Shown here in pieces: positions 36,625-56,845 of a stretch of DNA of 64,000 nucleotides (position 1 is the stretch's first letter; the number at the start of each line of letters is the position of its first letter). The notes below the pieces were generated by a model. The model was not told the origin of the DNA, searched no databases, and saw nothing but the letters and a program-made list of their open reading frames with translations. This DNA is from Botryllus schlosseri (Eukaryota), in NCBI GenBank assembly GCA_051294905.1, contig CM119371.1, positions 26,600,001-26,664,000 on the forward strand, read 5' to 3'. The position numbers were made by a program, and so were the translations under genes.

Positions 36625-36946
36625 CGCTATATAATCAATCGAAATGCGGCCATGATTATCAAAAACGTTGCCCACCTCTGTATTAGATGATGTTCTCTTT
36701 TTGACATGACGATAAATGCAAGGGAGCTCAGGGGGCGCGCGATTTTTTTTTAACATCTTCTAGGAGGGCGCGTGTCAAAAAAGGTTGAGAACCACTGTTC
36801 TAGTTGAAATTGAGCCAAATTCGCTATGAATCATATTTTTACACAATCTAACAATATCATGAGGTAGCCGGTAAAATTCGAAAATCTCTATTTGTAATTA
36901 ATCCAAAATATTTTCTCTTAGCATTGCTTTCTACTGGTTAGAACTG

Positions 36947-37321: not shown

Positions 37322-38164
37322 TACTGGTTAGAACTGAGCTAAATTTAGGTTATTTTAGAAAATCGAACAATTTTAAGAAGTAGCCTCCTTTTTGAGATTT
37401 TGTCCTCAGTTTTGAGAATTTTTGGTAAATGTAGGGCGAATTCGACGAAGATAACAGTAAATCAGCACTAAAGTAACGCTCCGGCGACTATTTCGGGAGC
37501 TGAGCAGGAAAGTTGACCTTTTTCTGGTCAACCACCTGATAATGTGAAAGCAAAACTGTACCTCTACATAAACGTTTATCTGTTGCAGACATGGGGTAAT
37601 CGTGATTAGTAATCGTAATCGATTACGACGATTACAGCATTTCCAAGTAATCGTAATCGCAATCGATTACATTCGAAAAAAATCAGAAGTAATCGTAATC
37701 GTAATCGACTACTTCACATATCTAATCGATTTCTTTGTGAAAGAACGATTACTTTTCATTTGTGCAATGCTCATGACATAAACTGAACTATGAACATTCA
37801 TGAGCAACGAAGAGTGTGATTTAAAACAGGATTTGGATAGCAGAAATGTCGGGTTTTCAAACGCCTCTATACTCATTATTGCGTCACAAGTATTAGATTC
37901 GTTCTTGATTGCGTAACGAATTATCCGCACGTAGTAAATAGATATTCGATGTAAATATTGTAGTACTGTGATTGTAAGAACACCCGCTGTGGATTATGTC
38001 ACTGCACTGATCGTTACATTGCAGATTGCACACGCCACCACCTCGCAGCAGGATAATAATCTCCACACGGCCTAGTTTCGAATAGTAATGCATATGTACA
38101 AATTGTACATTGTACAATCTATAGATGTTTTGTTGAACCACAGTCTGCAGCAAGCGCTTCACCC

Positions 38165-38212
38165 CGGGGGAGGTTTACTGCGGTTCCTCCAGACCCCTAA
38201 AATAATAAAAAA
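38165..38212 (+). mobile_element. 3'-terminal fragment of the 417-bp structured unit plus A-rich tail
   Basis: ggaggtttactgcggttcctccag...cccct matches the 3' hairpin of the units at 53.3-54.1 kb. Confidence 0.85.
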
Positions 38213-38232
38213 TATTTGGTTGTATTAAGGTA
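38213..38232 (+). ncRNA. Partial spliced-leader exon + donor (left TSD of element B)
   Basis: tatttggttgtattaag|gta; identical to the 3' 17 nt of the SL recalled for stolidobranch ascidians; repeated at 53130-53149. Confidence 0.7.
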
Positions 38233-38237
38233 GCAAC

Positions 38238-39472
38238 TAGGGATGGTGTGAACGTGAGGTTCACGTTCGCGTTCTGTGTGTGAACCTCGGAAATTAAGAG
38301 GTTCGCGTTCACAACAGAACCTTTGGTAGGATCTGCACTGTGAACCTTTTTTGGTAAATTGTAATTTGCACTTCATAAATAAGATCTTCGGTTAAAATTT
38401 ATTGCATTTCAACTGCGGGTCACTCTATGCATGGCACTGGCAGCATAAAAAATCAACACTAAACGAGCATGCACCTTGACAACATTGAAAATTTTACTCG
38501 CTTTTTTTGTTACAAAAAATTTCTCGAAATTTCCAGCTTTCCGTTTGTGAATATTTAGTGACTCTCTGCTGTGAGCTTGACCTGCAATCAGATAGTGTAA
38601 TGGTTATGCGTCCGACTTCTCGAGCGGTAGGTCGTGGGTTCGATCCCCGGCCGGGTCATACCAAAGACTGGAAAAATGGTATCCGCAGCTATCCTGCTAG
38701 GCGCTCAGCAATCACGGATAGCATGGAGGAGAAAAAAAACGGGGGCGCAGACTAGATGACCTCATGGGGCCGTATCGCAACTCCGTCGCCAAAGCATCTC
38801 GATGGTGCAGGCGAGAAAGAATATCATATCTCTCTCTCTCTCTCTCACATCACGAGCGAATGATGCTTATTCAGCGAATCAATAACATTGATATCGTTTT
38901 CTGATGTAAAAAATCGAGTGGGCGTACGGGGTCAATCTTGACTTCATATCTTTACTGTATCATTAAAACTAAATCCGTGCGATTAAGGTGCTGGCTACTG
39001 CTATATAACTTGTTGTTTATGGTATCGGTAGGGAGTATGGAAACCCGTTTTACACTCTGCTCAATATCAATGTAGCAATACTCAGACTCCGAACACATTG
39101 TCCGGTCTGGCAAAGACCGTTAAGGCGTAAGCTTATAGGCCTATTCCCTGGTAAGTCCTCGTCGAAATTCTTGGCAAAGCGACGGATTGTATTGATTTTA
39201 TGAGATAATTATATGCCTTGATAACCGCGGTTGATACATTTAGCGACGTTTAGAACGCCAATATGTACTTCAGCAATGTGACATTATGTGGCCCGAGTGT
39301 TCGCTAGGTATCGTGTACAATGTACATTAATATAGGCTATCACTTCATTGAAAGATATGGTTGGAATTAGCAATATGACGTCACGAGGTTCACGTTCGTG
39401 TTCACACAGAACCTTTCAAAAAGGTTCGCGTTCACACGAACCCGAACCTTTCAGAGGTTCACACCATCCCTA
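38238..39472. mobile_element. hAT MITE at the 5' junction of element B
   Basis: TIR tagggatggtgtgaac; perfect TSD gtagcaac. Confidence 0.93.
38580..38846 (+). mobile_element. tRNA-derived SINE with a MetaSINE-like core
   Basis: A box tagtgtaatgg, B box ggttcgatcc, core ggtcataccaaagactggaaaaatggta...gcgctcagca (family resemblance from memory), (tc)n tail; absent from the paralogous MITE near 24380. Confidence 0.75.
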
Positions 39473-39589
39473 GTAGCAACCACACGTGAGTTTACTAACG
39501 GCTATTTACAGGATCGAGGAACGTACCGGAGCCGCTTGGGCATTAGTTAACTACCGTAACTCTTAGTTTGTACCTAGGGATTTAAGTAG

Positions 39590-40899
39590 GCTACCCACTT
39601 CTGTCTTCACTCTTTTCGCCAACGTTCGGACTTCACCTTCGAGTCTCCTTCAGACTCTCCAGTTCTCCCTCGCCAGGACTCGACTCCTCTGGTCATAGAT
39701 GCAATACGAACGCACCCAACACTCGCTGAACACAAGGATAACATCCTTTCTTTGTTCCAAATAGGCAGGAACACTTGCAATCTAACGTTTCCTGCCGACG
39801 CACCGATAGAAAGATTGAAAAGGATCTTTCTGGACACAATACACAACGGGATTGTCACGGAAAAAGGTACAATACACATTGAACAACCCAGACTGCCCAC
39901 GGTTAAAATAAATGTTAGAGCGGTCCCGACGGAAGTCGAAGAAGCCGAAATCAGAAAGAAATTTACCAAATACCAATGTGGTACGATCAAGGAGATCACC
40001 TTGATATACCACCGAGGTACAAATATCCTTAACGGATATAGACAGGTAGCAATTGAGAACTACACACCAGGCAGAATACCGCCCTTCGTCTACTTGGGCA
40101 GGGCTCCTTGTAAAATCTACCTTCCAGAAGAAGACACAACAAACCAAACGTGTTACAGGTGTCTCCTTCCAGGACACGGCTCCAAAGACTGTCCGAACCA
40201 AACTGCATGTCTTATATGCAAGGAATACGGACACAAAAAAAAAACTGCCCGAAAAACAAAGACGATGCACCAATACAACAGACAACACAAAAAGACCCCA
40301 CAGATAAGAACACAAACAACAACTCTAGTGCAAGAAGACTCTTGCAATACGAGCCGGTGGCTGAACTAAACAGAGAGAGATCTGACGTGATACAACAAAC
40401 ACAACAGACTCAATTAAGGGAGAGAGACGCCACCCCATTGACACAATTCTTACGAAATAGCGCCAACACCCAAGAAACAATGGAACAAATGGAAAGTGCA
40501 GAACAAAACACTGACGAACAACAAACAGACGAGGAAAAACAAGATGAAAACGACACGTTAGATCTTTTCAGAGAAATTGCCGAAAGCGGCGACACACCTG
40601 AAAAGAATGAGCATGACACGACAATTAAACCAGGAACGCAAGATGAAGAAATTAGTAGCGGAAGCACTAACGAAGGGGACTTGGTCCTAGTAACAAGTGA
40701 GGATGAGGCCGGATCCCAGGTAGATAACACCAAACACCAAGCAAGCGGATCAACCTCGATATTAAGAGCGAAATTTGAAAACCGTACCTTCACGGCGGCA
40801 GAATTTTTCGGGGCAACCCGCTCCCCAAACAAAAGGAGCAGGGAAGAGCAAAGCCCGACCGACAAACAAAAAAACCAAAGAAGAAAAGCCAAAAAATAA
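39590..40899 (+). pseudogene. Element B ORF1 (two CCHC knuckles), frameshifted in an A-run at ~40240; no in-frame ATG before the knuckles
   Basis: NGYRQV..., CYRCLLPGHGSKDC, CLICKEYGHKK/NC across ORFs 39752-40369 and 40150-40899. Confidence 0.88.
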
Positions 40900-40930
40900 A
40901 TAACCCTGTCTCCTATCCTGTCCAATTCCG

Positions 40931-41824
40931 ATGGCGATTAATGCCATATCTCTGAACGCCAATGGAATGCAAACACATTGGCACAAAATGAAAAATTTAT
41001 TTAGAAAGGAAAAGAACTGGAATATAATATGTGTCCAAGAGACACACAGAATAGACATAAGGAGAATTGAAAAATGGGCACAACAAAACGACGTATTATA
41101 CTTTCCAAACCACATAAACATAGGCCAAAACTGGACAGACCTGGAAGAAAATAAAAAACATTACTACAGAGGTACAGCAATATTCGTTAAAAAGGAATTA
41201 CAAACAAAGTACAGCATAGATCACTCGATACTGCGACAGGATAGGGCACAGACGCTACGCTTAACTGGAAAGGAAACGAACGACATCGCTACCCTATACA
41301 ATGTGTATGGGCCTAGCGATGTCGGAAAATATCAAACAGACTTCTACAAAGATCTGATTAGCCACATTGAAAACAACACCCCAGAGAGCGCCATTATCTG
41401 TGGCGACTTCAATATCGTCACAGATAAGCTAGATTCCAAAAACACCGAGAATTTTAAACTGACGCTAGCCGCCAAAATTTGGAAAAACTTTGTAGATGTC
41501 TACAAAATACGAGACGTATGGCGTTGGCGAAACCCAACTAAAAAACTATATACTATAATGAAGGCACTGCAATCAAGGCGAATTGACCGAATATACGTAT
41601 CAGAACGCCTCCTCGCAAGAGTGAAGAGCGTATCATATAAACTCAACACCATCTCTGATCATATATTCTTGCAGCAAATCCAAATCAAAACACCAAATAA
41701 CAACAAATGGGGTCATGGTATTTGGAAAAACGATACCAGACACCTACAAGACGAGGTGCTGTATACCAAAATTAAAGCAACCCACCAGAGGTGCACAGAA
41801 CAGCCCAACAAACACAAAACCGTA
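40931..41824 (+). pseudogene. Element B ORF2, APE endonuclease part
   Basis: NANG, VQET, NVYGP, GDFN, RRIDRIY, SDH, WK motifs. Confidence 0.93.
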
Positions 41825-43339
41825 AAAGGATCATCCGGGATCATCTCGATTAGGTTCTGATTTTCTAAGTGTCGAGGGAATGTCTAAAATACGTAGTAGG
41901 ATGGTCTTGTGGTTATATTCAATCAGAATAAATTCATACTCGGTGTTGTTCCATCTCATGCATTAGGCTTCGTTATATCCGGTAGTTAACCTAATAATGC
42001 AAATTTTCTATCTCTCGCTGGTATGACTAAAATACGTAGAAAGGACGACTTTGTCGGTACATTCAATCATGATGAATTCCCATCCGGTTTTGTTCGATCT
42101 CATGCAGTAGCTTCGTTCTATCCATTAGAAAACAATGTTCTCCCTTCGTTTTATTGCGTGAGGATGTCACCGGTGTTGTATATTCGTGTTGTTGCTGTAA
42201 GGTCGAACAGTTTTGTTTTCTTCTGATATATATGATCTTCATTATATATATCCGCTCTTTCGGTAATCTCGCATGTTCAACGAGTATGGCTAATAGTTTT
42301 ATTCAGAGAATAACTAAATAAGTGAGATGTTGTACGTTTAGGAATATGATTATCGATGCGTGACTTCTAGAATATTTCGGCGATTCAAATTTTACGTCAT
42401 CGCGCCGGACAAAGATTTGACGCGCAACAGGTCTCAGCCAGGCATAGTTCGCTCTTTCTGTATGGTAAATGCCGTAAATATATAGGAATTGTGACTGACT
42501 GAGGTAGCGGGTTAAAGGTATATACGCAGTAGCATATAGCTTATGGGGTATTTCGAATTGCCTGTAGTATATGACGCCTAGAGCTGTTTGACTTTCTGCA
42601 AAACAGGTGTAGACAACTATAGAAAAGTTTCCGCTTTTCCAGGTTAGAATTATAGCTAAACCGTTTTTTCCGAATTAGATTACAATCATATCAATCAATC
42701 AATCATTTATTTGTCACACCAGTGAAAATCCGGTACGGACCAGGATGACGACGAGGGGCCGCAAGGCCTTAGTACACAGTCGCCACCTGAAAATATTGCT
42801 GGCATTTCGCTCTAATTTAGTGAAATTAGACCACTATAATTATCTAGTTGTCCAAGTCGCTTCAAACATCTGAATTACCGGTACCTATAAGCCTACCTAC
42901 GGTATATCATAATATTTATGCTTGAATTTTCTAGGTACATAAGTCAAGTCATATAGATACATACCTGTTGAACACTGATTCGTGATTTTATAAAAGTTGG
43001 TGCAAGAATGGACATTTCAACTTGATGTTGATTAATGGAGCAAAATTTGATATTTGAGTGCAATTATACCTCGAATCAAGTGACAAGATTAATAATCATT
43101 AAAACCAAACGCAGCTTGTGTATGTTGGCCCAGAGAATTTGGCTAGCCAGATCATATTGATAGAATATGGTCACAGTAAGATGAAATTTTGGGCTATTTT
43201 ACATGAACTTTCCTACATTTGATTTGATATGTCCGCTGAAACAGTTGTTATTTTGCTTTCGAATAAGACCTAAATTGCTGGTTTCAATGGTAACTGTGTT
43301 TGTCAAAGGCTGTAAAGGTAATTTCTTTTCCATGTTAGA

Positions 43340-44456
43340 TGTTTGTTTGTTTGTTTGTGGTGTTCATGGTGGTGGTTCGACTACACTGGTCATTTTACAC
43401 CAGGCTGGTTCTTATTATTATCATTCCTATCTGCCCGATTACCAGTGAACTCGGCACTTAGTGAATTCGGCCGCACAAACTCGGCACTTGGTGAATTCGG
43501 CCGTGGTAGATCTCGTAGCGGTACCGGTCACCATGATTGGTTACTGGAATGTTTGCCGGTGAACTTGGCACTTTGAGTGGTTGTCAATGTTGTAAGGGGG
43601 TCAGGGCATGCGTAGATCACACAGTCACGGCGTGATTAGATCACAGATTGCGTAATCGCGGGAAATAACGCGACGCTCTTCACTTGGTGAACTCGGCTCT
43701 GGAGGAATTGGCACTAGAACACCTTCGCATTAGAAATGCATTTAATATGAATGAACAGTATCAAAAAGGAGATTTAAACGTGTCGTGGCTCGTGGTAGAT
43801 CTGGTAATTTTGAGTGGAATCGTCTCTCCAAAGGCAAAAAATAATTTATTTTGACGTGATCATGCGAAACATTTGTTGATGAGGAACAATGGCTTGTCGT
43901 GATCGATAAACGAAGAAGTGCCGTTTGATCTTCCACAGTTTCCATCTCACATACAACGCCAAGATCCATCTTCTCAAAACTTACACGACACAGGCCCGTC
44001 ACTCACGCCATCAATTCCAAGCAGACCGCGCGTGGTCAGTATATGAGCGCTGCGTTATTTCCCGCGGCTACGCAATACGTGATCTAATCACGCCGTGACT
44101 GCGTGATCTACGGATGCCCTGACCTGACAAGATTGACGAATCACTTGATAATACTATTATTAGTTTGATAATTCATATTAATAGCTGTAAATACACTTCA
44201 TTTCAAAATTTCCTGAGGGCCGAATTCACCAAGTGCCGAGTTCGTGCGGCCGAGTTCATCGACAACCATCTGCCCACTTATAGCACGGCCCACTCCCAGG
44301 CTTTTTAAGACATGGCTATGCGGATCAGATGGCGAGGAGGAGCCTAGATAAACGGCCAACACTTCTGTAGGAATTATGGAGTCGACGTGTCAGGCTCGAA
44401 CCCGCAATTCATTGGTGTTTAGCTATAATGGAACGTACCACTACGTTTCCTCGCCA
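43340..44456 (-). mobile_element. Old tRNA-derived SINE interrupted by a TIR element
   Basis: Minus-strand B box gggttcgagcc near 44400; (aaac)n tail at 43341-43357. Confidence 0.55.
43437..44267. mobile_element. Long-TIR element (gaactcggc/gaattcggc repeats) with an internal ~100-bp inverted repeat
   Basis: TSD atctgccc; inverted blocks 43575-43680 / 44045-44147. Confidence 0.8.
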
Positions 44457-44904
44457 TACCTTGTAAAATGAGACCGTAGCATTTGGCATTTCGTGTGGCA
44501 ATTGACTTTTGTGTGGAAAATTGTGTTCGTTTTAGAACTTATCCGAAACTTTTATCCCGCCATAGATTGTATATGATAAAACGATATCGGAATTGATCCT
44601 AAAAGAATTCCAAAGCCACTCTCCACAAAGGAGGATTTAAAGAAGTTTGATGACAAATTGAATGAAAGCAAAAGCCTTTGCGAGAGCTGTGGTATGTTGA
44701 ATCTGTTTTGTTATTTTTAAATACTTTGTTGTGCCGATAGCAGACGGTATATATAAACGTAAGATGTGGAAGCTATCAAGGTGTTACGTTTATTATTTTT
44801 AGAAATTCAGTCAGTCAAAGTGGACGATCGTATTGCTTGGATTATATTTAGGCTTATTTCAGCATCTTTGAGATGCAACTCTGAACGTGGACGGTCATGA
44901 ACAG

Positions 44905-45169
44905 TAGGGCTTTTTAGAAATATCTTTTTTTTTTAAATCGTACTGGCTACTTGATAAAATTGTTAGGTTACAGGTGAACAGAAAATTTTAATAATTTTTA
45001 TTACCTATTTATTTTTATGTGATAAATAGAAACTTTCTTCTCCTGTAGCAAAGCGGTTACTGGCTGGAATTGAACCAAATTTTGTGTTTAGGCTTGAATT
45101 AGGCAACCTAACAATTTTATCAAGTAGCCAATACGATTTGAGATAAAAGGTCATTTTTGAAGAGCCCTA
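44905..45169. mobile_element. Internally deleted copy of the tagggctcttcaaaaa MITE
   Basis: Perfect TSD atgaacag. Confidence 0.9.
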
Positions 45170-45446
45170 ATGAACAGTCAACTAATTCTGTTCCTATATT
45201 GACATATCAGACATTTGCACTCAGTACCGTTGGCGGCGACAATATTGTTCGGTCAGCAAGAATCATCATGAAGAAGGTTGCCAATCTGGTGTAATTATAG
45301 CAGAGTCGGAAAGAATGGGAAATACGCTTTCATCAACCTCTATTTGAACAAGATCACATATAGTAAGTGACATTCATGATATGCTGCAAATGTGACTGTG
45401 TTCTTTGTCTAGTCACCCCACTCATGTAACTATTGAGGCTTCATGC

Positions 45447-46409
45447 CAGGGTTGTAACTGGGGCTGGGCACAATGTTTCGAGTACTCGAATCTGAATCGA
45501 GTATTAATTTTAATGATTTGAGTCGAGTAGTAAAAGACGATTTTTTCGAGTACTGAAATTATACTCCCCTCTACACTGCAAGGTAATTTAACAAAGAGAA
45601 TTATAGTTTCGATACTAATTATCCCTGTAGAAGCCTTGAAACCTTGATTGGCCGTATCGTAGCATACAAAACATATAGTACAAAGCTACGAACGTTACTG
45701 GAAATAATTCATTTCCGAAGTCATGATCATCCCACAACATTGTCACCAAGTGCAATGAAATCAGCATGGTCGAAAAATACCAAAGTATCTTTCATTTGAT
45801 GGATACCAGGAATAATAGTCTTTGTCGTCGCTTAAAAGGAACATATTTGAATTTTGACATATTACATTCTGTTGTGACGTCATAATGAGTGATACTCGAT
45901 TACGAAGCATTTTACGTGATTCAGAATCGAATCACTCAGGTACTCGATTTTGCCCAGCCCTAGTTGTAACCAAGTCACAAGGCTCCGAGTCACAAGTCAA
46001 TCTCACTTTTATAGTTTTGACTCGAGTCATTTTCAATTCACCACCGAGTTATGGTATTATGACTCGAGTCAGAGTCTAAGTCATTGTGTTAGCTGCTCAG
46101 TTTTCAATTTAAGTCCTGTTAAACCAGCTTTTTACATTTTTTTGTGATATCGAGTGGGTCGCATTTATAATATACTAATTTTCCTTACATTGAGCAGTTT
46201 CTGGTCACACTTTCAAATACCAGTGTCAATAGACGAAATCCCAATAGCAGTTTACTGTACTATTCTTTGAAATAACCATGAAATGTCGGTCTTGGCCGTC
46301 TGAGTCTCAAGTCATGCGCAATGAGTCAAGTCATTTCCCTACTTTGAGAAGATGACCTGAGTCAAGTCGAGTCGACAGAAAATCATGACTCGAGTCATTA
46401 CAACAACTG
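45447..46409. mobile_element. gactcgagtc-family hAT MITE with a second MITE (45459-45962, TSD gttgtaac) inserted in its TIR
   Basis: Outer TSD cttcatgc; inner TIR tggggctgggca / tgcccagcccta. Confidence 0.9.
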
Positions 46410-48032
46410 CTTCATGCAATGAGCATTTACTTTGAATATAAATAGTAATTGAATAACTGGTTGGTGGTACAAAATTTTGATACTGCTTTCAAAAGTACCT
46501 TCATGATAAACGTTATTGAAACCCGAAGAACAGTATGACAGCGTGACACAATTCTTTAATTATTTATTATAGTGGTGCCCACCGTAAATACTATTTTATT
46601 CAAATCCAAATTTTTCGATGGCAATAACTCCGCTTCCAGTTGTTTGAATCGAACCAAATTTGATGAACATCGTTTCTATACATAACCTAACACTTACATG
46701 GGGTGAACAGAAAATTTTCAAATTTTTTAAGAGCCCTAATGTCCATGTCAGAGAAACGTTTAAGGGTAGGCCTACTCACATGTCTCGCAGCGTTCTCTAC
46801 ATAATTGTCAATTGCGATACAAACTGTTCACTTGTATTGGTAAAGCCATCTAACTTCGAATTGTAAAATGTTGGGAGTCTTGAAATCAAATTTTTGAAAG
46901 GTGCACTCTGAGAAGATTTCGGAATCTGTCAAATTATACAAAAAATTTTAACAAATTCTTTGACATATTTCATCTATTTGGGACTCGATCAACGTAAAAG
47001 AATTGTTAATTATTTTATACAATATATTGTAGTTGAAGTATAGTAATAATACTTATGGTTACCGCACTTGTAACGATTCACGGCCATAACTGCAATAATT
47101 AGAATGATGTAACTTTCAAATTGTCATGCATTTTGCAACAACATTGTTCTCAATTTTCAAGGTGCTGACCATTGGAGGAAGAATCACCCTTAAGCCGGGA
47201 ATTCACGATCCGTAAACGCGTCCGACTGTTTCTCTCCTCAAGCGGAAGCGACAGAGAAGAGGAACGAAGAGAAATAAGGAGCAGAAATAGCAAGAGTATG
47301 ACAAGTCGCGTCCGTTCGCTTTAATGCGTATTCACATCCGCGAAGCGCTAAGTAGTAGATGGGAAAACTAATGGAGCGTTTGGTTAGCGCTTATATAAGG
47401 TTGACTCCAGCGCTGTATTTGCTAAATGTTGCGGTGAAATAGGGGTGGTGTCATTTGGTATCAATATTGACTATTAAAAGACAATTTGTTAGTGGTCATG
47501 GATTTGTTTGGCCAGTATGCAGTAATTTCTGATGGTCACTTCCCGGGCTTCTGTTGTCTAACCCCTCATGATAGTTATTCTGCTTCTAGTAAGACTGTCG
47601 ATTCTAATCTTTTATCGTATCATTTGTCGGAGGTTTCGCTCGCTTTATTTACAACGTTTTGCTCTCTGCTAGGTCAATTACTTTCCTGGCTGAGTATCAC
47701 TACAGCCTAAGAAACTGCACTAATTCTCATTTTAATGTCTTGTTGGTTATCTTGCTGTCAATTCTAATAATTTGGTAATGTCTATACCAGTGCAGCCACT
47801 CAAATGTTTTGTTCTCTGTACACAATATTGTTAGGTCTTCAGCTAACCAGGCAGAGTATCATTCCACTTTCTAGACTCGAGTATTTATCTCTCCAACCTA
47901 ATCCTTGCGTACTGTGCCATAACTGTTACATAAACCTTTCTGTCACTGAATCCATGCAATCCGCTGACCTCAGTATCTACTTCCATAATATGATGATATT
48001 TGGATGTTCTTGGTTCGGTCTATTGACTATAT

Positions 48033-49659
48033 CAGTGGTTCTCAACCGGTGTGCCGCGGCACACTAGTGTGCCATTTACGTCTCGCAAGTGTGCCGCGAG
48101 CGATTTATTCGAGAAGTTTGAAATTATTCGCTAAATAATTATAGTCTATATAGCAAACGATCAATAATCAAAAACGGGCACGATGTGAATGAAGCTTGTA
48201 CAGTACATTTGACAGGTCAAAATCATCATCATGCCTGCAATCAATATCCCTCGCAAATTTGCTTCACCCGACATAGCCTGCTTGGAATGTTGCAATAAGT
48301 TTTGCACATTGCGTTGATTAAACGCGGAGAAGAGCAGACATGACGGCGCCTATGACAATGCAGTTTTCAAATCCTCATCGTCCTCCTAATCATCACCGAG
48401 AAATGAATTCCTTTGGAAATGATGTTCACGGTTACAAATTCGAAGTACAGACAATAAACATCCATATTGCGATTGTTTGGCAGCGTGTCGGCACTACTGT
48501 TAAAATGTAGGCTATGAGCGCAACGTTATGTTACCGGCGACGACATTGAAAATTGAGAAGAAAAGTTGATCTGATTACATCAGTTACCAAATTGCCCGCC
48601 GCTGCGGTTATTATCCAGATTTTTGGAACTATTATTGAACTGCTGGTGGATGACACTGCCAGTAGAAGTATTGAGGTATTGCTATCGTCACGCGTGCTAT
48701 ACGATCTTCGTGGAAATGCGTTTGGCATCCTTGTGTGTATTTGTATATACTCCTCTAAGCAGTGGTGGCTTTTGGGGTGGGCGAGGTGGTCGGTCTTCCG
48801 CCTCCACTGGTCGACGGGCCCCCCTCTTTAGTTTAAACACTTTTTTCAAGGGTTAGAGCGAATAGACGTGGAAATCCGTCAGATGGGTCAATCATCAAAT
48901 CTCTGCAGTTGTTAGAAAGGTCCCATATCCCGATAATCATCAAGTCTCTACATGCGGTAGAGGTTCTTAGTTTTGATGTAGTCTATCCTTGCAACCATGC
49001 GATAATAGATATGACCTAATCCAGCGCCTGGCTCAAACCTTGACGTGGTATGCTGGCTCATTAGAAATGTCAGCCGATAGCTTTCCAGATTAGTGTGGTC
49101 ATTTAGCCTGCAGCAGTTGTATCACCATTCTATTTAGGCCTGCTTCAAAGCCGTGTTATAGTGTCATATACACATCACGTAATTCCGTTCCAGATGGCGC
49201 ACTAATACTAAGTTGGTAATAATAGACGCGAAATGGGGGTCTGGGATGCGGAGACCCCGGAAGCTGCGATTTCATAGTCTCGATCAGCCCTCCCCCAATC
49301 GTAGGGCCACAAGCCTATAAGCATCGTTATTCGTTTGTGGCGATCGGGCTTGGCCTCTTCGATGCGATGATTAATTACATCGACAATGCGGTAGTAGGCA
49401 GGTATTTGTGACACGACCGCAGATTCAGAAGATTACGTAATTTCTTCTTTGAAGTTGAGCAAATCCTACTTGACTGATCGTAAAATGTAGAAGTACTTCG
49501 TCAGATACCGCGTCTGCACAACTGTGGGTGCCGCTAAGTACGCTGGTTGTTTTCAGGTGCCGTAAGCTAAAATATGTTGAGAAACACTGTGCTAGTGTGC
49601 CGCGAACTATTTATCCTTTTCAAAGGGTGCCGCGAGGTCAAAAAGGTTGAGAACCACTG
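48033..49659 (+). mobile_element. Non-autonomous hAT (Charlie/Buster-like) element
   Basis: TIR cagtggttctcaacc; perfect TSD gactatat. Confidence 0.92.
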
Positions 49660-50245
49660 GACTATATAGTAAACTTTTCATGTGCTGTATCCTAATATGT
49701 ATGGATATTTGTCATAGTAACTGTAATATTTTGTATCTGCCTACACTTGAAAGCAATTTTATTACTCATTGCAGAGACATATTATCCACTCAGTTAAGTT
49801 TCTTGATTCTCGTTTTATTGTATTGTTAGTTGTCTTGGCTTTTTCTATAATGTCAATTCTAATTTGTTTTCGCTTCTCCAACTCATTTCATGTTATTATC
49901 TGTTTTATGATCTTTATATAATACAAAGTAATGGGTAGTGGATACCATTGCATATGTGACGGCATGCTATTATGATCAGGTATGCTTAAATAGGTGAAGC
50001 AGGAAGGGAGTGTGTCAGGGTGGTCTTTTAACCAGCGGATCTACATCCCACGCGCTGATGAAAACGCTGTAGTATATGCGTAATATTTACATTCTTGAAA
50101 GACATGGAAAAGACATTAAAACGAGTCGACAAAAAATCCCCCTTTCTACGACCTGCCGAGATCTAATATCTACTATATCGACTCAGCTTTTCTACATCTT
50201 TGGTCTGTAAAGTGTTTACTGGGAGAAACCACATTTCAATGACGT

Positions 50246-52738
50246 GTACTAATGGTGGGATTACCTCAAAAAGGAAATGAAAAAACAGCTTAGCTGGCAA
50301 AAGAAACTCGAAAAAGACAATAAAATAAAAGCGCTACAAGAAAAAATAAGACGCATACAAAACCAACAAAACCCGGATGAGAACCCAATCGACGCAGTTA
50401 AAGAACTAAAAAGGCTCGAGGATGAAGAGATACGGCATCAATGCCAACTTCACAAAATAAAAGATATAGAGGAAAATGAAAAACCTACGAGGTATTTCTT
50501 CCAGAAACTACAACAGCGAAGGGAAAGTAGAATCCTCAGCTCCGTAGTAAACGGAAACGGTGCAGAAGTCACCACCAAAGAAGAAATCCTAGATACGGTG
50601 GAAAATTTCTACACAGATCTGTGGAGCAAATCAATGAACGCAAACGCATATTTACAAACTAAATACCTCGATACGGTTAAAGAGATCAAGATCACCCCCG
50701 ACCAGCGGGAAGATCTTGAAACTCCGATTACGGAAGATGAAATTAAGTGCATAATCCAGAAAATGGACAACGGCAAGACACCCGGACCAGATGATCTGGC
50801 CAAGGAATTCTACGTTGCCTACTATAATCTGATCAAAAGTGACCTCCAGGAAGTTTTAAACAACTCATACCTCTTTGGAGGTATATGTAAAACATGGTCA
50901 GGAACTAAAAAACTGGAGGCCTATTACCTTATTGAATACTGATTATAAGATATTAACTGCAATGCTAACAGCAAGACTCACACCTATACTTCCGAACATC
51001 GCCAACGAAACGCAAAAATGCGGCATAAAAGGAAGACAAATACCAGAAGTGCTGAGGAACACCAACGCTGCAATAAAATACGCGAAAGAAAGAGGCAAGG
51101 AACTCCTGGTAGTCAACCTTGACCAGGAAAAAGCATTTGATAAAATTAACCACCAATATCTGCACAAAATCCTGGAAGGATACGGACTGCCCTCTCATTT
51201 CACGAAATTAATCAAAAATATCTACAGCGAAGCTAGCAGCAGAATCTTAGTCAATGGAGCTCTAACAAATAAAATAAAACTAGGAAGAGGCATAAGACAG
51301 GGATGTCCGCTCAGCATGAGCCTTTACGCCATCTGTAGTGACCCCCTGGCTAGGCTTATAGAAAAAAAACCGAACATCGAGGCATTCAGGATAGGAGGTA
51401 CCAAAAAGAAAATCCAGCAATATGCGGATGACCTCACTTGCTACCTAACGCGAGAAAAAGATATCGATCTCATATTCCAGGAATTCGAAAGATGTGAACG
51501 TGCAACGGGCCAAAAACTCAACGCACAAAAAACAGAAATTTTGCACATAAAACCGAAAGGGAGCATCCCAACCCAGAAAACAAAATATCAAGAACTCACA
51601 AAGCCGAGCATCAAAATACTCGGACAACATTTTGGCATAAATCAAATTAATGACACATGGGATATGAGAATCATGAAAATAAAGCGAGTACTCTCAGCCT
51701 ACAAACACAGGAAATTGTCCTGGGTAGGGAAGAAAACTATACTGAACTCTATTGCCGCGAGCCAAATTATCTATGATGCCCGAGTAATCCCAATGCTAAA
51801 AGATCAGCAAAAACAAGTCGAAAAGCTATATTTTAACTTTCTCTGGAATCCACTCGAAAAAAACACTTATCGCAGAGAAGGATAAAGGAGGCTATGATAT
51901 ACCTGACGTGGAATCAAGAAATAAAGCCTGTGAACTCGAAAAAATCCAAATACTGAAAAAACTTGATAAACCCACCGAATTTTGGCATCAACACACAATA
52001 TACGAAATTGGAACGAAAATAAAAGAAATCAACGATAAACTATACAAAAACAGCGAACCACATAAATATCCCACCCCAAAAAACTGGATCGACAGCATTG
52101 ACATCAGCAAAAAAATAGATTTCGACGAAAAAGAGTGGCAAGACGCCACCCACAAATCCTTATACAAGGCAATAAAAAGCCTAAAGGAAAATCGTCCAGA
52201 AATCAGAACCGAAAGGGGGGACAAAATCAATTGGAATAAAATAAATCGAACCAAGTATGGAATTTACAAAACCATCACAAACGAAGAATCGATTATTAAC
52301 TATAAAACGGCACACAACGCATATATATTTGGAAACAAAAAAAGAAGCCGAAATCTCACACACTCCAACACAGGAGTAGCACTAGACCTAAAATGCAAAT
52401 TCTGCAACGCAAATGATGATGACGTGATACATATTCTCACATCATGCAACAAGAAAAATCCTAACCCAGCTAGAAAACATCGTGGGGAGGAAGCTGAACA
52501 CAAACAACATCTTATATAACATTGGAAACCAAAAAACAGACTGGACAGTGGACAGTACTGTCCATATATAAAAAATCAATCATAAACTTCAAAATAGCAT
52601 TAGACATAGAAAACCGAAAAGTCGCAGACGAAAATATAACAAAAAAAGATAATCACAATAATTAAAAAACGAGTCAGCCGAATAGAAGCTGACTCACACA
52701 CACGCACGATACTCGGCAAAATAGACATGATAACGTAA
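50246..52738 (+). pseudogene. Element B ORF2, RT and zinc-finger part (several frameshifts/deletions)
   Basis: KTPGPD, NWRPITLLN, GIRQGCPLS, QYADD, CKFC....DVIHIL..C spread over ORFs 50277-50942, 50875-51885, 51908-52519. Confidence 0.93.
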
Positions 52739-53129
52739 TACACGTGAGCAGGACAACAAAATATGAAGAAAGCATAACACCCCCTAAAGTCGGGTCCCAA
52801 ACGAAAGTTTGGCCACCTCAACTAAAATTAAGGGGGAAAAAATGTCTTCGGGCGAAAGGGGAGGGGCCGAAAAAACCTCTAAACCACTCGCGTCCGGCGG
52901 GCAGCCTCTGACCCGTAAACGAAAATACGAAGAGAATGATGAGAATACCAACCTCAAACATTGGAGTATTTGGTTGCACTAAGATACAAGCAAACCTACT
53001 CCCTCGTGATGAGTATGCATGGCAACGCGCCATAACCACCGAAAATAAATAGAGTAAACAAGAAAAGAAGTAACCGTTTAAATTAAGTTCGAAAACCGTT
53101 CAAACACCTTATTTAAAAAAATATATATA

Positions 53130-53159
53130 TATTTGATTGTATTAAGGTAAGCATCGGCT
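53130..53159 (+). ncRNA. Partial SL exon, splice donor and start of putative SL-RNA intron
   Basis: tatttgattgtattaag|gtaagcatcggct. Confidence 0.7.
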
Positions 53160-53281
53160 GTGTCTGAGATTTTTATGAATTGTGAAGTGTGCCTGAAAAT
53201 AGAGATATATATATTCCTGTTATTTGTATTGAAATTCTTCCTGGAATAAAATTGGGATCGCTGCGGCGACCGAAAAAAAAA
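53160..53281 (+). mobile_element. 5'-truncated retroelement 3' end
   Basis: aataaa, short hairpin, A9 tail, perfect 12-bp TSD taagcatcggct (53148-53159, 53282-53293). Confidence 0.85.
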
Positions 53282-54126
53282 TAAGCATCGGCTTACTGGA
53301 CGCTGGCCGGTGCGAAACCCTAGTGGTCCAACCATAATACTTCAATCACTCTCACACCCAGGAGAAGTATGGCCGTCAGGCCTTCATGCTCCGAACCGGG
53401 ATCTGTGTCAGCTTGACTGGCCAGTATCCCAGTCACAAGTATGGTGGCGGCGGGACAAGCCTCCGCAGACGCCCCCAGCCAAAGCCTGCTTGTGACAGCT
53501 GTTAGTACCAACAAGTTGAAGAGAAACTTTGAAGGGAAAACAGAACCAGAAGCAACCTTGTGGGATCTCTTGGGTACTTTGGACCCAAGAGTGACCTATA
53601 AAGGCGCTTGTGGCAATAGCAACATGGTGTAGTGCCATGCGGCTGCCACAAGCGTAACGGGGTGGAGGTTTACTGCGGTTCCTCCAGGTTACCCCTAAAA
53701 AAAAAAAGCATCGACCTATCTGGCTGATGCGAAACCCTTGTGGTACAACCGATACTTCCAATCACTCTCACACCTCGGAAGAGTATGGCCTTTTAGGCCT
53801 TCATATTCCGAACCGGGATCTGTGTCAGCTTGACTGGCCAGTATCCCAGTCACAAGTATGGTGGCGGCGGGACAAGGCTCCGCAGACGCCCCCAGCCAAA
53901 GCCTGCTTGTGACAGCTGTTAGTACCAACAAGTTGAAGAGAAACTTTGAAGGGAAAACAGAACCAGAAGCAACCTTGTAGGATCTCTTGGGTACTTTGGA
54001 CCCAAGAGTGACCTATAAAGGCGCTTGTGGCAATAGCAACATGGTGTAGTGCCATGCGGCTGCCACAAGCGTAACGGGGTGGAGGTTTACTGCGGTTCCT
54101 CCAGGTTACCCCTAAAAAAAAAAAAA
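53282..54126 (+). repeat. Two tandem ~417-bp structured, poly-A-terminated units (SINE-like)
   Basis: Unit 1 53282-53707, unit 2 ~53706-54126; multiple hairpins; A11 and A13 tails; both begin aagcatcg. Confidence 0.92.
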
Positions 54127-55169
54127 CGCAATCTGACCGTAGCTGATTGGCGAGCGGTAGGCCTATTTGCGTATACAAAGGACAACGATTTGAAATTTTG
54201 TACCCGTCAAATTAAACATGACAATTTCTACATCGAAGCATTAAAAACCAGGCTGCTGATAAAAAAATCATAACCGAGCCGTTATTTTCCGTTACTCGTA
54301 TAACGGCAGATCGAAATATATGTATTAAGTGGATTGCAGTCAGAAGTTGATGTTTACCTTATCATATTCTCATACGGCCCTATTTAAAACGGGCAACAAT
54401 TGTTCTTTCGCAATTTTGTACTCATCATTCGAATATGCCACTAGCCATCCGCTTACACACCATGTTAGCGTGGATTTCAGCTAGAATCAGTACCGAAACA
54501 GCACTTCGCCACCGCCATTCTCACAAATCGTGATCTTGTGCTCCCCATAAGGCGATCAATAAGGCTTGTGGCGGGCGAAGTCCCCCAGAACCCCCTTTAA
54601 GGCCGGGATTTTCACAAGAACTAGAAAACACGATTTGATGCGATGGATCCGCTGTGAATTTGCTGTCAAGTCGCGCCAGGCGCGAATATTTAGGCACATA
54701 ATTTAGGACTATAACTTTATTGTATGTTGTTAACTCGTGACCTCCTGTCTGCTATATAGTCAGCAGATATTGGAGTCGCCCAAACGTAGCGGACGAAAAG
54801 AAAACTAAACGAAAAACTTTTGTGAGACGCACCAAAAATTGTCATTTATGCACGTGGTTCATCATTTTCCTCAGTGAGTGCCCCCGGTGGCATTTGTATT
54901 GTGGGGCTGAGATTGAGAAGAATTTTCTTCGCGACCATCCAGCGCGGCTATGGACAATGGACAAATACACAATGTTTCGGCCAATGTAGCATGTCTAGTT
55001 GTGTTGCGACGCGGTATTGGCTGGCACCGAAATGCCTATTTCTGTGTAAATCATGCCATGGTATATTATGTCATACACAGTAAATGACGTCATTATAAAT
55101 AAAGACCTTCTCTCATGAGGCCTTTTCATCGCATTGTTGTCTTCCAAAGATAACTTCTCAGAAGCAAAA

Positions 55170-55327
55170 TGAATGTAATCGTGAGTAATCGTGATTACTT
55201 TTCCAAAGTAATCGTAATCGTAATCGACTACTCGCGGATTTTGCTGTAATCGTAATCGTAATCGCGTGATTCATAAGTAATCGTAATCGCAATCGATTAC
55301 ATTCATGAAGTAATCACCCCATGTCTG
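55170..55327. mobile_element. Opposite terminus of the cagacatgggg MITE family
   Basis: gtaatc repeats ending ...caccccatgtctg. Confidence 0.7.
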
Positions 55328-56845
55328 ATAATGACATCGCTATATGATGTTATTGCGTGACATCCTGTCTGCTACGTTAAAAGATATTGAAATTGCCCAA
55401 ACCTACAGATGGGAATTTCTTCACTGGCAAATAATTTTTCTCTGGGGGTAGAAATATCCATTTCTACGGGCCTACTTTATGTGTATGTTTTCTTCGGGGA
55501 TGGGTACCACATAAACAAGATATTTGGCGATAATAAATCTAGAATTTATGTTTGGGGTGCGGCAGTTGCGGTCCTGATTATGACGCATACTATTGGTTTT
55601 CATCTCTGACATATAGGCTATGTGTCACTAAGAAAAAAGAAATCGTAAAATCGACTGTCGCAAAAGATCTACTGAATGCGTTCGTGTACTGAATATTGAT
55701 GAGGTACCGAAAATAAAATGTAAAGTATACTCCCGAATATATGTTCAACTTAAATTCAGACTATACGCCCTTTCACGGATCTTATCATTGAATAAATGCC
55801 CTCTATTTGGAGGAAATTGTGTTTAACGATAGCGCGGCGACGACAATAACGGTGAGATCGAAACCAGCCCGAGCTTTTGAGCACTTTCGATTGACATTTC
55901 CACTTTCGGCCACAGTTGAATATCATGACCATGCGGTAGCACAACTGTGGTCTTCGAAGCGTAAATGTTTTCTCATTACATTGTAATGTTGCTTTATATG
56001 TAACTCGGATTGAATGTGCTTTGTTCAGTTCGCTCGAGTGTTGCTTGCAATAAACTTGTTTGCCGCTTCACTGTTGACCCGGAGATCAAAAGAATCCAGG
56101 ATAGTTCAAGCAACAAGATGAATTTTGAGAATGAGGGTGGTTTAGAGAACCAAGCTGAGAATGCAGTTGCTATCAAACTTTTTTTCATTTGGGGCCTCAC
56201 ACCCTGCACCCGGGTTCGTTAGGCCGGGGCCCAATTCCAGATCCGGGGAATCAGAACGTACAGTATTACATTATACTACGTGGTCTCCGCATTAGAAACT
56301 GCAATCGACTTTTCCACATTTTGGAGCAGCCTTCCCAGGAGAACAAATGCAGAGCAATGACACACAGTCCACTTGGCACCATCGACCTTCGACGACAATT
56401 GCGCGCAGTGCGCCTAATCAACATGCCCCATTCGACAGATCGAAAGTCTTTCGCACTTGGGGGTGATTTTGTACGCAACGAGCGAAATGCATTGTATTTA
56501 AATAACTGTTTTATGTGAAAATGTTTATTTGAAAAAGAGTAGTATGGGCTGAAATAATACATGCAGTACTTACTGCTAGTTCCGGGTAATGACGATGTAG
56601 GCGTGACATCAGCGATGTCAGAACTACGAGCTTTACCACCATCTTCCATATTGCATTGATAGTATGGAAATAATCAGCAAGTGTATAAGAAAATTCTGGA
56701 AATGCAGAAACTAAATATCTTCAAGGTGACATTTTCTGGACAATAGCTTGAGACTCTATTGAAACTTTTCAAACTGCGTGGGGCTTAAGATATTCGTGCA
56801 AAAATTTAAACAAAAAACACAATATATGAAGTATTTACCTTAGAA

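Follow-up and report, generated by a model that had tools for sequence, protein, structure and literature searches.

Among the long interspersed nuclear elements (LINEs), SLACS, CRE and CZAR of trypanosomatids and NeSL of nematodes are specific for the genes of spliced-leader (SL) RNA, and the position of SLACS in the SL gene could give its transcription from the SL start. To our knowledge, every SL-targeting retrotransposon carries a restriction-like endonuclease and is found in protists or nematodes; target-specific families of the Tx1 clade are represented by Tx1L and Tx1D of Xenopus, Mutsu, Dewa, Kibi and Koshi. The subject of the present analysis is a train of five poly(A) retroelements arranged head-to-tail, all on the + strand, at positions 38135-54126 of a 64,000-nucleotide stretch of the genome of the ascidian Botryllus schlosseri (assembly GCA_051294905.1, contig CM119371.1, positions 26,600,001 to 26,664,000; hereafter the window), in which a degenerate LINE, named LINE B, and short interspersed nuclear elements (SINEs) stand among pieces of SL sequence, as established by direct reading of 37800-55500. 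The train has probably arisen through successive insertions, by target-primed reverse transcription, at the splice-donor region of the SL sequence (...TTAAGG|TAAGCATCGG...), which is carried by hundreds of retroelement 5' ends.

In the accessible part of the article PMC4640811, SL exons are counted among the LINE targets, the SL-specific NeSL is placed in the clades with a restriction-like endonuclease, in agreement with an earlier note on this DNA that had considered the known SL-targeting LINE clades to be of that type, and Tx1 and R1 are given as target-specific clades of the apurinic/apyrimidinic endonuclease (APE) type. The text available of Kojima 2015 (PMC4494074) ascribes a target-sequence preference to many Tx1 families, names Mutsu, Dewa, Kibi, Koshi and the Xenopus Tx1L/Tx1D as members of this clade, and cites U6/L1 template-switch chimeras and retropseudogenes of small nuclear RNA (snRNA). 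The same text describes SINEU as SINEs headed by U1/U2 snRNA, with Tx1-Mar and Keno as the LINEs that bear the same heads and share the target, Keno being inserted in U2 genes, and this system is the closest known one to the locus considered here. No description of an SL-headed SINE or of an APE-type SL-targeting LINE was found in the literature outside subscription journals and Repbase Reports, and the search for publications on L1-Tx1 elements in tunicates was unproductive.

The SL RNA and the SL heads of SINEs and LINEs

The motif recurring along the train, ATTGGAGTATTTGGTTGTATTAAG (24/25-mer), appears as the consensus "Chordata 1" in Table 1 of the review PMC3795323, the supplementary files 1-2 of which contain the SL for Botryllus schlosseri, Halocynthia roretzi, Boltenia villosa, Herdmania curvata and Polyandrocarpa misakiensis. 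The identification of the motif in the earlier note as the trans-spliced leader of stolidobranch ascidians is thereby borne out by the tables of that article, and the GTAAG donor that the note reported directly after the motif is seen in the sequence. RNA reads from the runs X6 and X7, which are tied to the assembly by the species label, were mapped on a full SINE copy (L010), where 4155 reads of X7 and 17 reads of X6 have the SMART template-switch oligo immediately 5' of the A in ATTGGAG, and the RNAs therefore begin exactly at SL +1. After GTAAGCATCG, 3656 of the X7 reads depart from the SINE copy and continue as the consensus GCTGAGTTTTTACATATCGAGTACTCCAAT, the last 9 nt of which are reverse-complementary to nt 1-9 of the SL; the RNA seen in these reads (GTAAGCATCG|GCTGAG...) is taken as the real SL RNA. 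The L010 SINE itself sits in a very highly expressed repeat (1412-1482 and 1948-2222), with depths in the thousands, and thousands of reads join 1482 to 1948-1950 via AGCCCA(GT) and therefore originate from repeat copies without the SINE. For the window segment 50253-54126, no RNA data set was listed.

This genome contains SINEs and LINEs whose own 5' head is formed by the first 25-35 bases of the SL RNA. The SL exon followed by GTAAGCATCGG forms the 5' head of a dispersed SINE of ~440 bp, which is short, non-coding, poly(A)-tailed and flanked by target-site duplications (TSDs), and for which at least 136 candidates were met at first look. The pattern SL17+GTAAG, with at most one mismatch allowed, has 102 genomic matches dispersed across the contigs and 0 in the reversed control, and SL24+GTAAGCATCG runs into the SINE body of the window type in 22 of the 29 loci outside the window, the upstream flanks being all unrelated (here and below, the counts of junctions and loci come from at most 30 tool-chosen loci per search). 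The SL head was present at the canonical distance in 19 of the 39 SINE copies that had been collected through a search with only the 3' half, and TSDs of 7-17 bp, made up of unique DNA and situated outside the head and the tail, were recognized in 9 of the 15 copies having a recognisable tail. The head starts on the same A as the RNA 5' end (SL +1), and its homology to the SL RNA of the reads stops at nt 34-37, in agreement with the TSD lengths observed; within a given subfamily the junction does not vary, and the copies show a subfamily structure. A hairpin that follows the donor (GCATCGGC...GCCGGTGC) is conserved in 90.9% of cells, with at most 43% in the slid controls, and contains one G-C/C-G compensatory pair, found in 6 sequences. 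No tRNA, 5S, 7SL or snRNA head was detected, with 0 matches to Rfam in the window segment 37500-55000 at E<=1 and 0 tRNAs predicted by ARAGORN.

The LINEs share this organization in part. Outside the window, 25 LINE 5' ends were read, 11 of which have a full or partial SL with G and then the conserved 5' untranslated region (UTR), while 12 stand directly after the poly(A) of another element, often as A(n)GGTA, and 2 show neither arrangement. The pieces of SL in the window, which the earlier note had attributed to a resident SL RNA gene, proved to be SL-derived heads of retroelements located inside a DNA transposon, an intact copy of which has no SL at the site.

Several other features of the LINE ends deserve mention. 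The 5'UTR (window 39481-39515; L046-L073) starts with GCGTRAGTAT(A)CTAACGGCTATTTNCAG and looks there like a splice-donor consensus combined with the branch point TACTAAC and the acceptor AG, all within ~25-37 nt of the SL donor; the homology of this motif to the 3' part of the SL RNA was considered and rejected, as 28 of 300 shuffles scored equally high. In the 3'UTR, a mimic of the SL exon with the donor, ATTGGAGKGTTTGGTTGYACTAAGGTACAAGC, occurs in all four other aligned copies (L034, L035, L037 and L038) and, by a strict pattern, in 5 distinct junctions of further subfamilies (L040-L044, L049), ~150-290 nt upstream of the poly(A), the window copy being a degenerate, third SL-like copy at 52960-52983. 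This mimic could be a relic of an SL-headed insert turned into the LINE 3' end, a seed of the SINE or a guide in target recognition; on a bold and rather improbable reading, it would hold the LINE RNA to the antisense strand of SL genes and thereby direct the integration. Two stretches apparently similar to the first ~35 nt of U2 snRNA were also encountered, one in antisense orientation just upstream of the SL head in L007, as a 5' extension of a SINE copy, and the other in sense orientation in L037, ~620 nt after the T run and near the SL split by a LINE; U2-derived material may be part of the same retroposition traffic.

Insertion at the SL splice donor

The preference of insertions for the SL splice-donor sequence is real, but not strict. 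The junction A8+T[AG]AGCATCG was found 72 times in the genome, including 27 cases of TAAG, i.e., of the SL donor, and 45 cases of TGAG, and was not met in the reversed control (0). The TGAG sites are the look-alike TTTGG|TGAGCATCG in an unrelated repeat, where the SINE copies have clear TSDs, one of them being the 12-bp TGAGCATCGTTT. Sequence of the AGCATCG type follows 5 of the 19 SINE tails, namely TAAGCATCG and GCATCG once each and TGAGCATCG of the unrelated repeat three times, and the GG|T context is present in 5 of the 9 clear TSDs. The statement of the earlier note that insertions hit the SL donor region, duplicate the target as TSD and build arrays is, accordingly, supported by the 72 junctions and by the 12-bp TSD of the fragment F, a part of the train inserted in its SINE U1.

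The elements of family F end with ...GGGATCGCTGCGGCGACCG(A)n, and in L023 and L070 an unrelated element sequence continues upstream, from which it follows that F is a 5'-truncated insert and that the SL head to the left of it is not its own. With F being such an insert, TAAGCATCGGCT on both of its sides represents a 12-bp TSD made inside the U1 head. The tails of the family-F-like elements are followed by TAAGCATCGG in 3 of 5 cases.

A LINE on contig 14 (L068 + L037), with its ends ~6.1 kb apart and the first open reading frame (ORF1) of 436 aa intact, both ends having been read and the central 1.7 kb unread, lies exactly between SL24+G and TAAGCATCGGCCGAGTGCGCTCGG+T8, i.e., at AAGG|TAAGC, with no poly(A) past the T run. 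Among the 3' junctions of the LINE B type (n=13), 3 are of the SL type, 1 falls in the 5' region of a SINE, 2 in LINE parts and 7 in unrelated sequence; this check of the flanks speaks against the SL specificity that had been assumed for the LINE family. Nor is the SL target used by LINE B alone, being common to the SINE, family F and the LINEs. The target preference is seen for the whole element system, and the LINE family taken alone has 3-4 SL-type 3' junctions out of 13.

The LINE 5' ends and the poly(A)|TAAGCATCG junctions are clustered on contig 14 (22.16-22.30 and 24.02-24.33 Mb) and contig 7 (27.5-29.1 Mb), and these clusters could be invaded former SL gene arrays. Three CCCTAA telomere-type units were noticed in L037, ~440 nt past the T run, in the contig-14 region crowded with LINE, SINE and SL junctions.

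The train, LINE B and the host transposon

Part of TATTTGRTTGTATTAAGGTAAGCATCGGCT stands after each poly(A) tail in the train. The order of the elements on the + strand, as given in the earlier note, was reproduced by the direct reading, with its tail coordinates being off by a few bases; its leftmost "unit" is indeed a SINE 3' end with a tail, but of 78 bp only and from a related SINE family. This element, U0 (38135..38212, + strand, family D11), has kept only the 3' end of a 5'-truncated SINE akin to the 417-bp unit; its A-rich tail ends in aaaataataaaaaa. Next to it (38213..38232, + strand) is the left copy of a 20-bp direct repeat, TATTTGGTTGTATTAAGGTA, composed of the last 17 nt of the SL exon with GTA and read as the TSD of LINE B, the right copy of which is at 53130-53149; the two copies flanking LINE B are 95% identical (family D17). 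LINE B (38233..53129, + strand) ends with A7(TA)4 and is followed by the SL-derived head of the SINE U1, TATTTGATTGTATTAAGGTAAGCATCGGCT (53130..53159, + strand), which consists of the SL exon from nt 8 onwards, carrying a single G>A change at 53136, and of GTAAGCATCGGCT. This head is now parted from the U1 body by the insertion of F (53160..53281, + strand), a 122-bp piece representing the 3' end of a longer, 5'-truncated poly(A) retroposon, which ends with A9 and has its left TSD copy at 53148-53159. The remainder of U1 (53282..53707, + strand) includes TAAGCATCGGCT as the right TSD copy of F (53282-53293), the type-A body and A11, and A8TAAGCATCG is read at 53274-53290 across the junction of the F tail with U1. 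The SINE U2 (53708..54126, + strand) starts with GCATCG, without SL24 + GTAA; its head remnant is type-B-like and is followed by the body and A13. U1 and U2 are 99% identical across 300 nt at a spacing of 417, their 3' halves being essentially identical (213 nt, listed as 100%). The 17-mer motif is present three times in the window with at most 2 mismatches, the expected number being 0.04, and none of 100 shuffles reached three.

Judged by its sequence, LINE B is an APE- and reverse transcriptase (RT)-encoding LINE of the L1 superfamily (L1/Tx1 group). Its + strand parts are the 5'UTR, which begins at 38233 and resumes at 39481, the ORF1 remnant with two CCHC knuckles (~39590-40899), the APE (40937-41824) and the RT with the C-terminal part (50226-52647) of ORF2, and the 3'UTR up to 53129, with the A7(TA)4 end and with the SL-like element ATTGGAGTATTTGGTTGCACTAAGATA at 52960..52986 (+ strand, 2 mismatches). 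The profile matches are Exo_endo_phos (4.7e-16), RVT_1 (2.6e-36) and zf-RVT (0.0026, below the curated cut-off), and the motif CKFCNANDDDVIHILTSC was read directly among the ORF translations. In the tblastn comparison with the full-length homologue P0001, ORF2 covers aa 1-1115 of 1149 in four frames; with at least three frame changes, LINE B is an old, broken copy, in which ~420 bp of the 5'UTR/ORF1 start and the final ~110 bp of the family 3' end are missing. P0001 is 58% identical to the window RT; its match to human L1 ORF2p (1.6e-72) spans residues 3-877, and those to R2 proteins are ~1e-24 only and restricted to the RT. These domain matches and the L1 ORF2p similarity of P0001 bear out LINE B as an L1-superfamily LINE with APE, RT and CCHC. 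The endonuclease of LINE B is the N-terminal APE, with no restriction-like endonuclease found in the domain search.

In the Tx1 clade, ORF1 is of the zinc-knuckle type, unlike the Transposase_22 type of mammalian L1. Two CX2CX4HX4C knuckles were recognized by eye in the intact 436-aa ORF1 of L068 (zf-CCHC at E 0.042, below the cut-off), for which there was no Transposase_22 match. The name Tx1 is carried by none of the 120 homologues listed, nor by the atlas clusters.

LINE B is interrupted by a nested element with terminal inverted repeats (TIR; TAGGGATGGTGTGAAC...) of 1.2 kb at 38238..39472, which was delimited by direct reading, has the 8-bp TSD GTAGCAAC at 38230-38237 and 39473-39480, and is presumably hAT-like by its ends. 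A composite block of 8.4 kb (41825..50225, family D2), recognized by direct reading and by the break in the ORF2 alignment, contains another TIR element (~48037-49662) flanked by the 8-bp TSD GACTATAT. The nested TIR end GGTTGAGAACCACTG of the second element recurs at 36762-36802 and is a SINE insertion site in L008.

The entire train is enclosed in a TIR DNA transposon of + orientation, with the left arm at 37586..38134 (TIR CAGACATGGGG... by direct reading) and the right arm at 54127..55327, beginning with CGCAATC.... Among the 3066 first-look candidates, 40 other copies match 37588-38134 at 89-96% and all end at 38134. The intact copy L077 reads ...TTTTGTT ATGCTTAGGTAAA CGCAATC..., with no SL at the site, and it is for this reason that the train is considered to stand in place of ATGCTTAGGT(AAA), which is similar to the SL donor TTAAGGTAAGC. 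As for a TSD of the whole train, no CGCAATCTGACCGTAG copy was found upstream, and the comparison with the intact transposon gives a loss of 10-13 bp instead.

Origin of the train and comparison with known systems

In the mechanism proposed, a LINE group of the L1 superfamily, probably Tx1-like, would encode an APE-type endonuclease with (G/A)G|T as its preferred nick site and GG|T[AG]AGCATCG as the strongest one; the predicted nick target of the APE domain is GGTAAGCATCG, with the SL donor context ...TTAAGGTAAGCATCGG.... An element landed in a real SL RNA gene would lie right behind the SL exon with G and might be transcribed from the SL start, such transcripts starting with the 24-nt SL exon and the donor, to which the SINE would add 9-12 nt of the target duplication, TAAGCATCGG(CT). 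The RNA of the SINE would then carry the SL together with the TSD, which would explain why its homology to the SL RNA ends at nt 34-37, and RNAs copied elsewhere would take the SL head along. Since each head would be a new target, later insertions of LINE, SINE or F would stack before the older ones, and the arrays would grow leftwards. For the train in the window, the events may have begun with the insertion of U2 into the look-alike site TTAGGTAAAC of the DNA transposon, continued with U1 entering the head of U2, family F entering the head of U1 with the 12-bp TSD and LINE B landing further upstream with the 20-bp TSD, and ended with U0, accompanied by a small deletion of the target sequence. 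It is quite doubtful that the SL-headed SINEs, or a subset of them behind promoters, act as dispersed SL donors, with retroposition having spread or partly replaced the SL gene family; the SINE copies come into consideration as SL donors because ~100 of them keep the exact SL exon, the GT donor and the hairpin, and no canonical SL gene was found.

The account given in the earlier note, in which LINE B, as a Tx1 LINE with specificity for resident SL RNA genes, invaded a genomic SL gene whose remnants would be the SL pieces of the window, appears improbable, and for this window it is already contradicted. It would fit with the LINE whose insertion divides a short SL-RNA-like sequence right at the donor, TATAAAGG being located 25-30 nt upstream, and with the 27 poly(A)|TAAGCATCG junctions, many of which are on contigs 14 and 7 where LINEs also cluster; however, the train lies within an abundant DNA transposon whose intact copy is without SL at this place, the SL heads of the window run on into SINE bodies, the headed SINE copies have TSDs in unique DNA, and the majority of the LINE 3' junctions (7/13) are unrelated to SL. 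Somewhat more room, although the explanation is still unlikely, should be left for the absence of any SL targeting, in which case elements would be inserted into A-rich tails or joined by template jumps of the RT, and the heads would result from switching to the abundant SL RNA, as in the U6/L1 chimeras. The adjacency of 12 of the 25 LINE 5' ends to the poly(A) of another element, the recurrence of TATTTGG starts with non-poly(A) flanks as well (L013, L014, L028 and L021), the extra 5' nucleotides and partial SL duplications typical of template jumps (L007, L027, L030 and L047) and the poly(A) retrocopy of a short SL-like RNA (L004) are in its favor. This explanation is opposed by the 5'-truncated F with its 12-bp TSD within the head, by the use of the same nick site, with a clear TSD, in an unrelated repeat, by the precise splitting of the short SL sequence by a LINE, and by the SL-SINE junction, which is constant at nt 34-37 and neither coincides with the 3' end of the SL RNA nor varies.

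The SL copies might also be imagined as relics of reverse-transcribed trans-spliced mRNAs, by analogy with the recycling of processed cDNA in dinoflagellates. The locus L042, where SL17 is followed by ATATAATAC and there is no GT donor, indicates that retrocopies of spliced RNA may exist, but the unspliced GTAAG stands after the SL in all 30 loci (though the search pattern required GTAAG), 22 of the 29 non-window loci continue into one SINE family, and the LINE heads retain G or GTA past the exon, which makes this origin extremely improbable in general and already contradicted for the elements of this train.

A number of observations weigh against the repeated target-primed insertion into the SL donor, too. 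The transcription from SL +1 into SINE sequence is suggested by read arithmetic and not by direct view: in X7, the 4155 starts at SL +1 less the 3656 reads leaving give ~500, and ~450 reads cover the SINE-specific position 1537. The LINE preference is far from absolute, with 3 SL-type and 7 unrelated 3' junctions among 13. Poly(A) directly before TATTTGG had 0 genomic matches to A6WW+TATTTGGTTGTATTAAG, a pattern that misses the own A6 junction of the window and hence shows the rarity of long tails abutting TATTTGG only, and the two poly(A)-TATTTGG junctions of the window could be 5' truncations instead. The sampling of at most 30 loci per search should be also kept in mind, as well as the RNA runs having only the species label in common with the assembly. 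No match in the assembly at up to 3 mismatches was obtained with the read-derived 3' portion of the SL RNA, GTAAGCATCGGCTGAG had no true match there, and the searches by the short form and by the read-derived 3' part found no intact canonical SL RNA gene. The short SL-RNA-like form, which consists of the SL exon with GTAAGCATCGG, the CCGAG-UNCG-CUCG(G) hairpin and a run of 8-9 T and is unlike the SL RNA 3' part seen in the reads, occurs only twice, as a poly(A) retrocopy with a 14-bp TSD (L031/L004, contig 2, ~12218395-12218460) and as the copy split by a LINE. As the region upstream of the latter has two paralogues without SL, the LINE-split copy is not proven a gene, and in the search for a genuine SL RNA gene in the assembly only the retrocopy L004 and this copy turned up.

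If the repeated insertion into the SL donor is true, an APE-type (L1/Tx1-like) system would have converged on the SL gene in a chordate, and the SL RNA would join tRNA, 7SL, 5S and U1/U2 among the small RNAs serving as SINE heads. The tandem arrays would be self-propagating because the head and the target are the same sequence, and the recognition motif of ~11 bp, GGTRAGCATCG, would be directly testable on the APE endonuclease. Furthermore, the ~100 dispersed copies of the SL with the donor would confuse the annotation of SL RNA genes and trans-splicing in this genome.

With SLACS, CRE and NeSL, the present system shares the insertion of non-LTR retrotransposons in SL sequence. However, as far as the available text on those elements extends, they have a restriction-like endonuclease and reside almost exclusively in SL exons, whereas the present LINE has an APE and is found mostly outside the SL; the putative nick of the latter is just past the donor G, and it has SL-headed SINE partners. 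SLACS and NeSL characteristically have almost all of their copies at a single position of the SL gene, which is not observed here, with 7 of the 13 3' junctions unrelated. Tx1L/Tx1D and other Tx1 families are similar in being APE- and RT-encoding LINEs that prefer a specific repeated sequence, including other mobile elements, with a different target. In the U6/L1 chimeras, as in the elements described, a poly(A) retrocopy begins with sequence of a small nuclear RNA, and L004 looks like a plain retrocopy of a short SL-like RNA; in contrast to the full-length small RNA and the variable 3' partner points of template-switch chimeras, the SINE heads contain only the first 34-37 nt of the SL RNA, with a constant junction, and belong to families with subfamilies.

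The greatest likeness is to SINEU, within what the accessible text of PMC4494074 reports of that system. In both cases, short poly(A) retroposons have as the 5' head a fragment of a small RNA gene of the spliceosomal type, the partner LINEs are of the APE type and bear the same head, the common preference for one target sequence leads to nested or tandem copies, and 5' extensions and template switches are present. The differences from SINEU are the tunicate host, the placement of the LINE to the level of the L1 superfamily only, and, above all, the coincidence of the head and the target in one and the same sequence, that of the SL RNA, so that the elements target each other.

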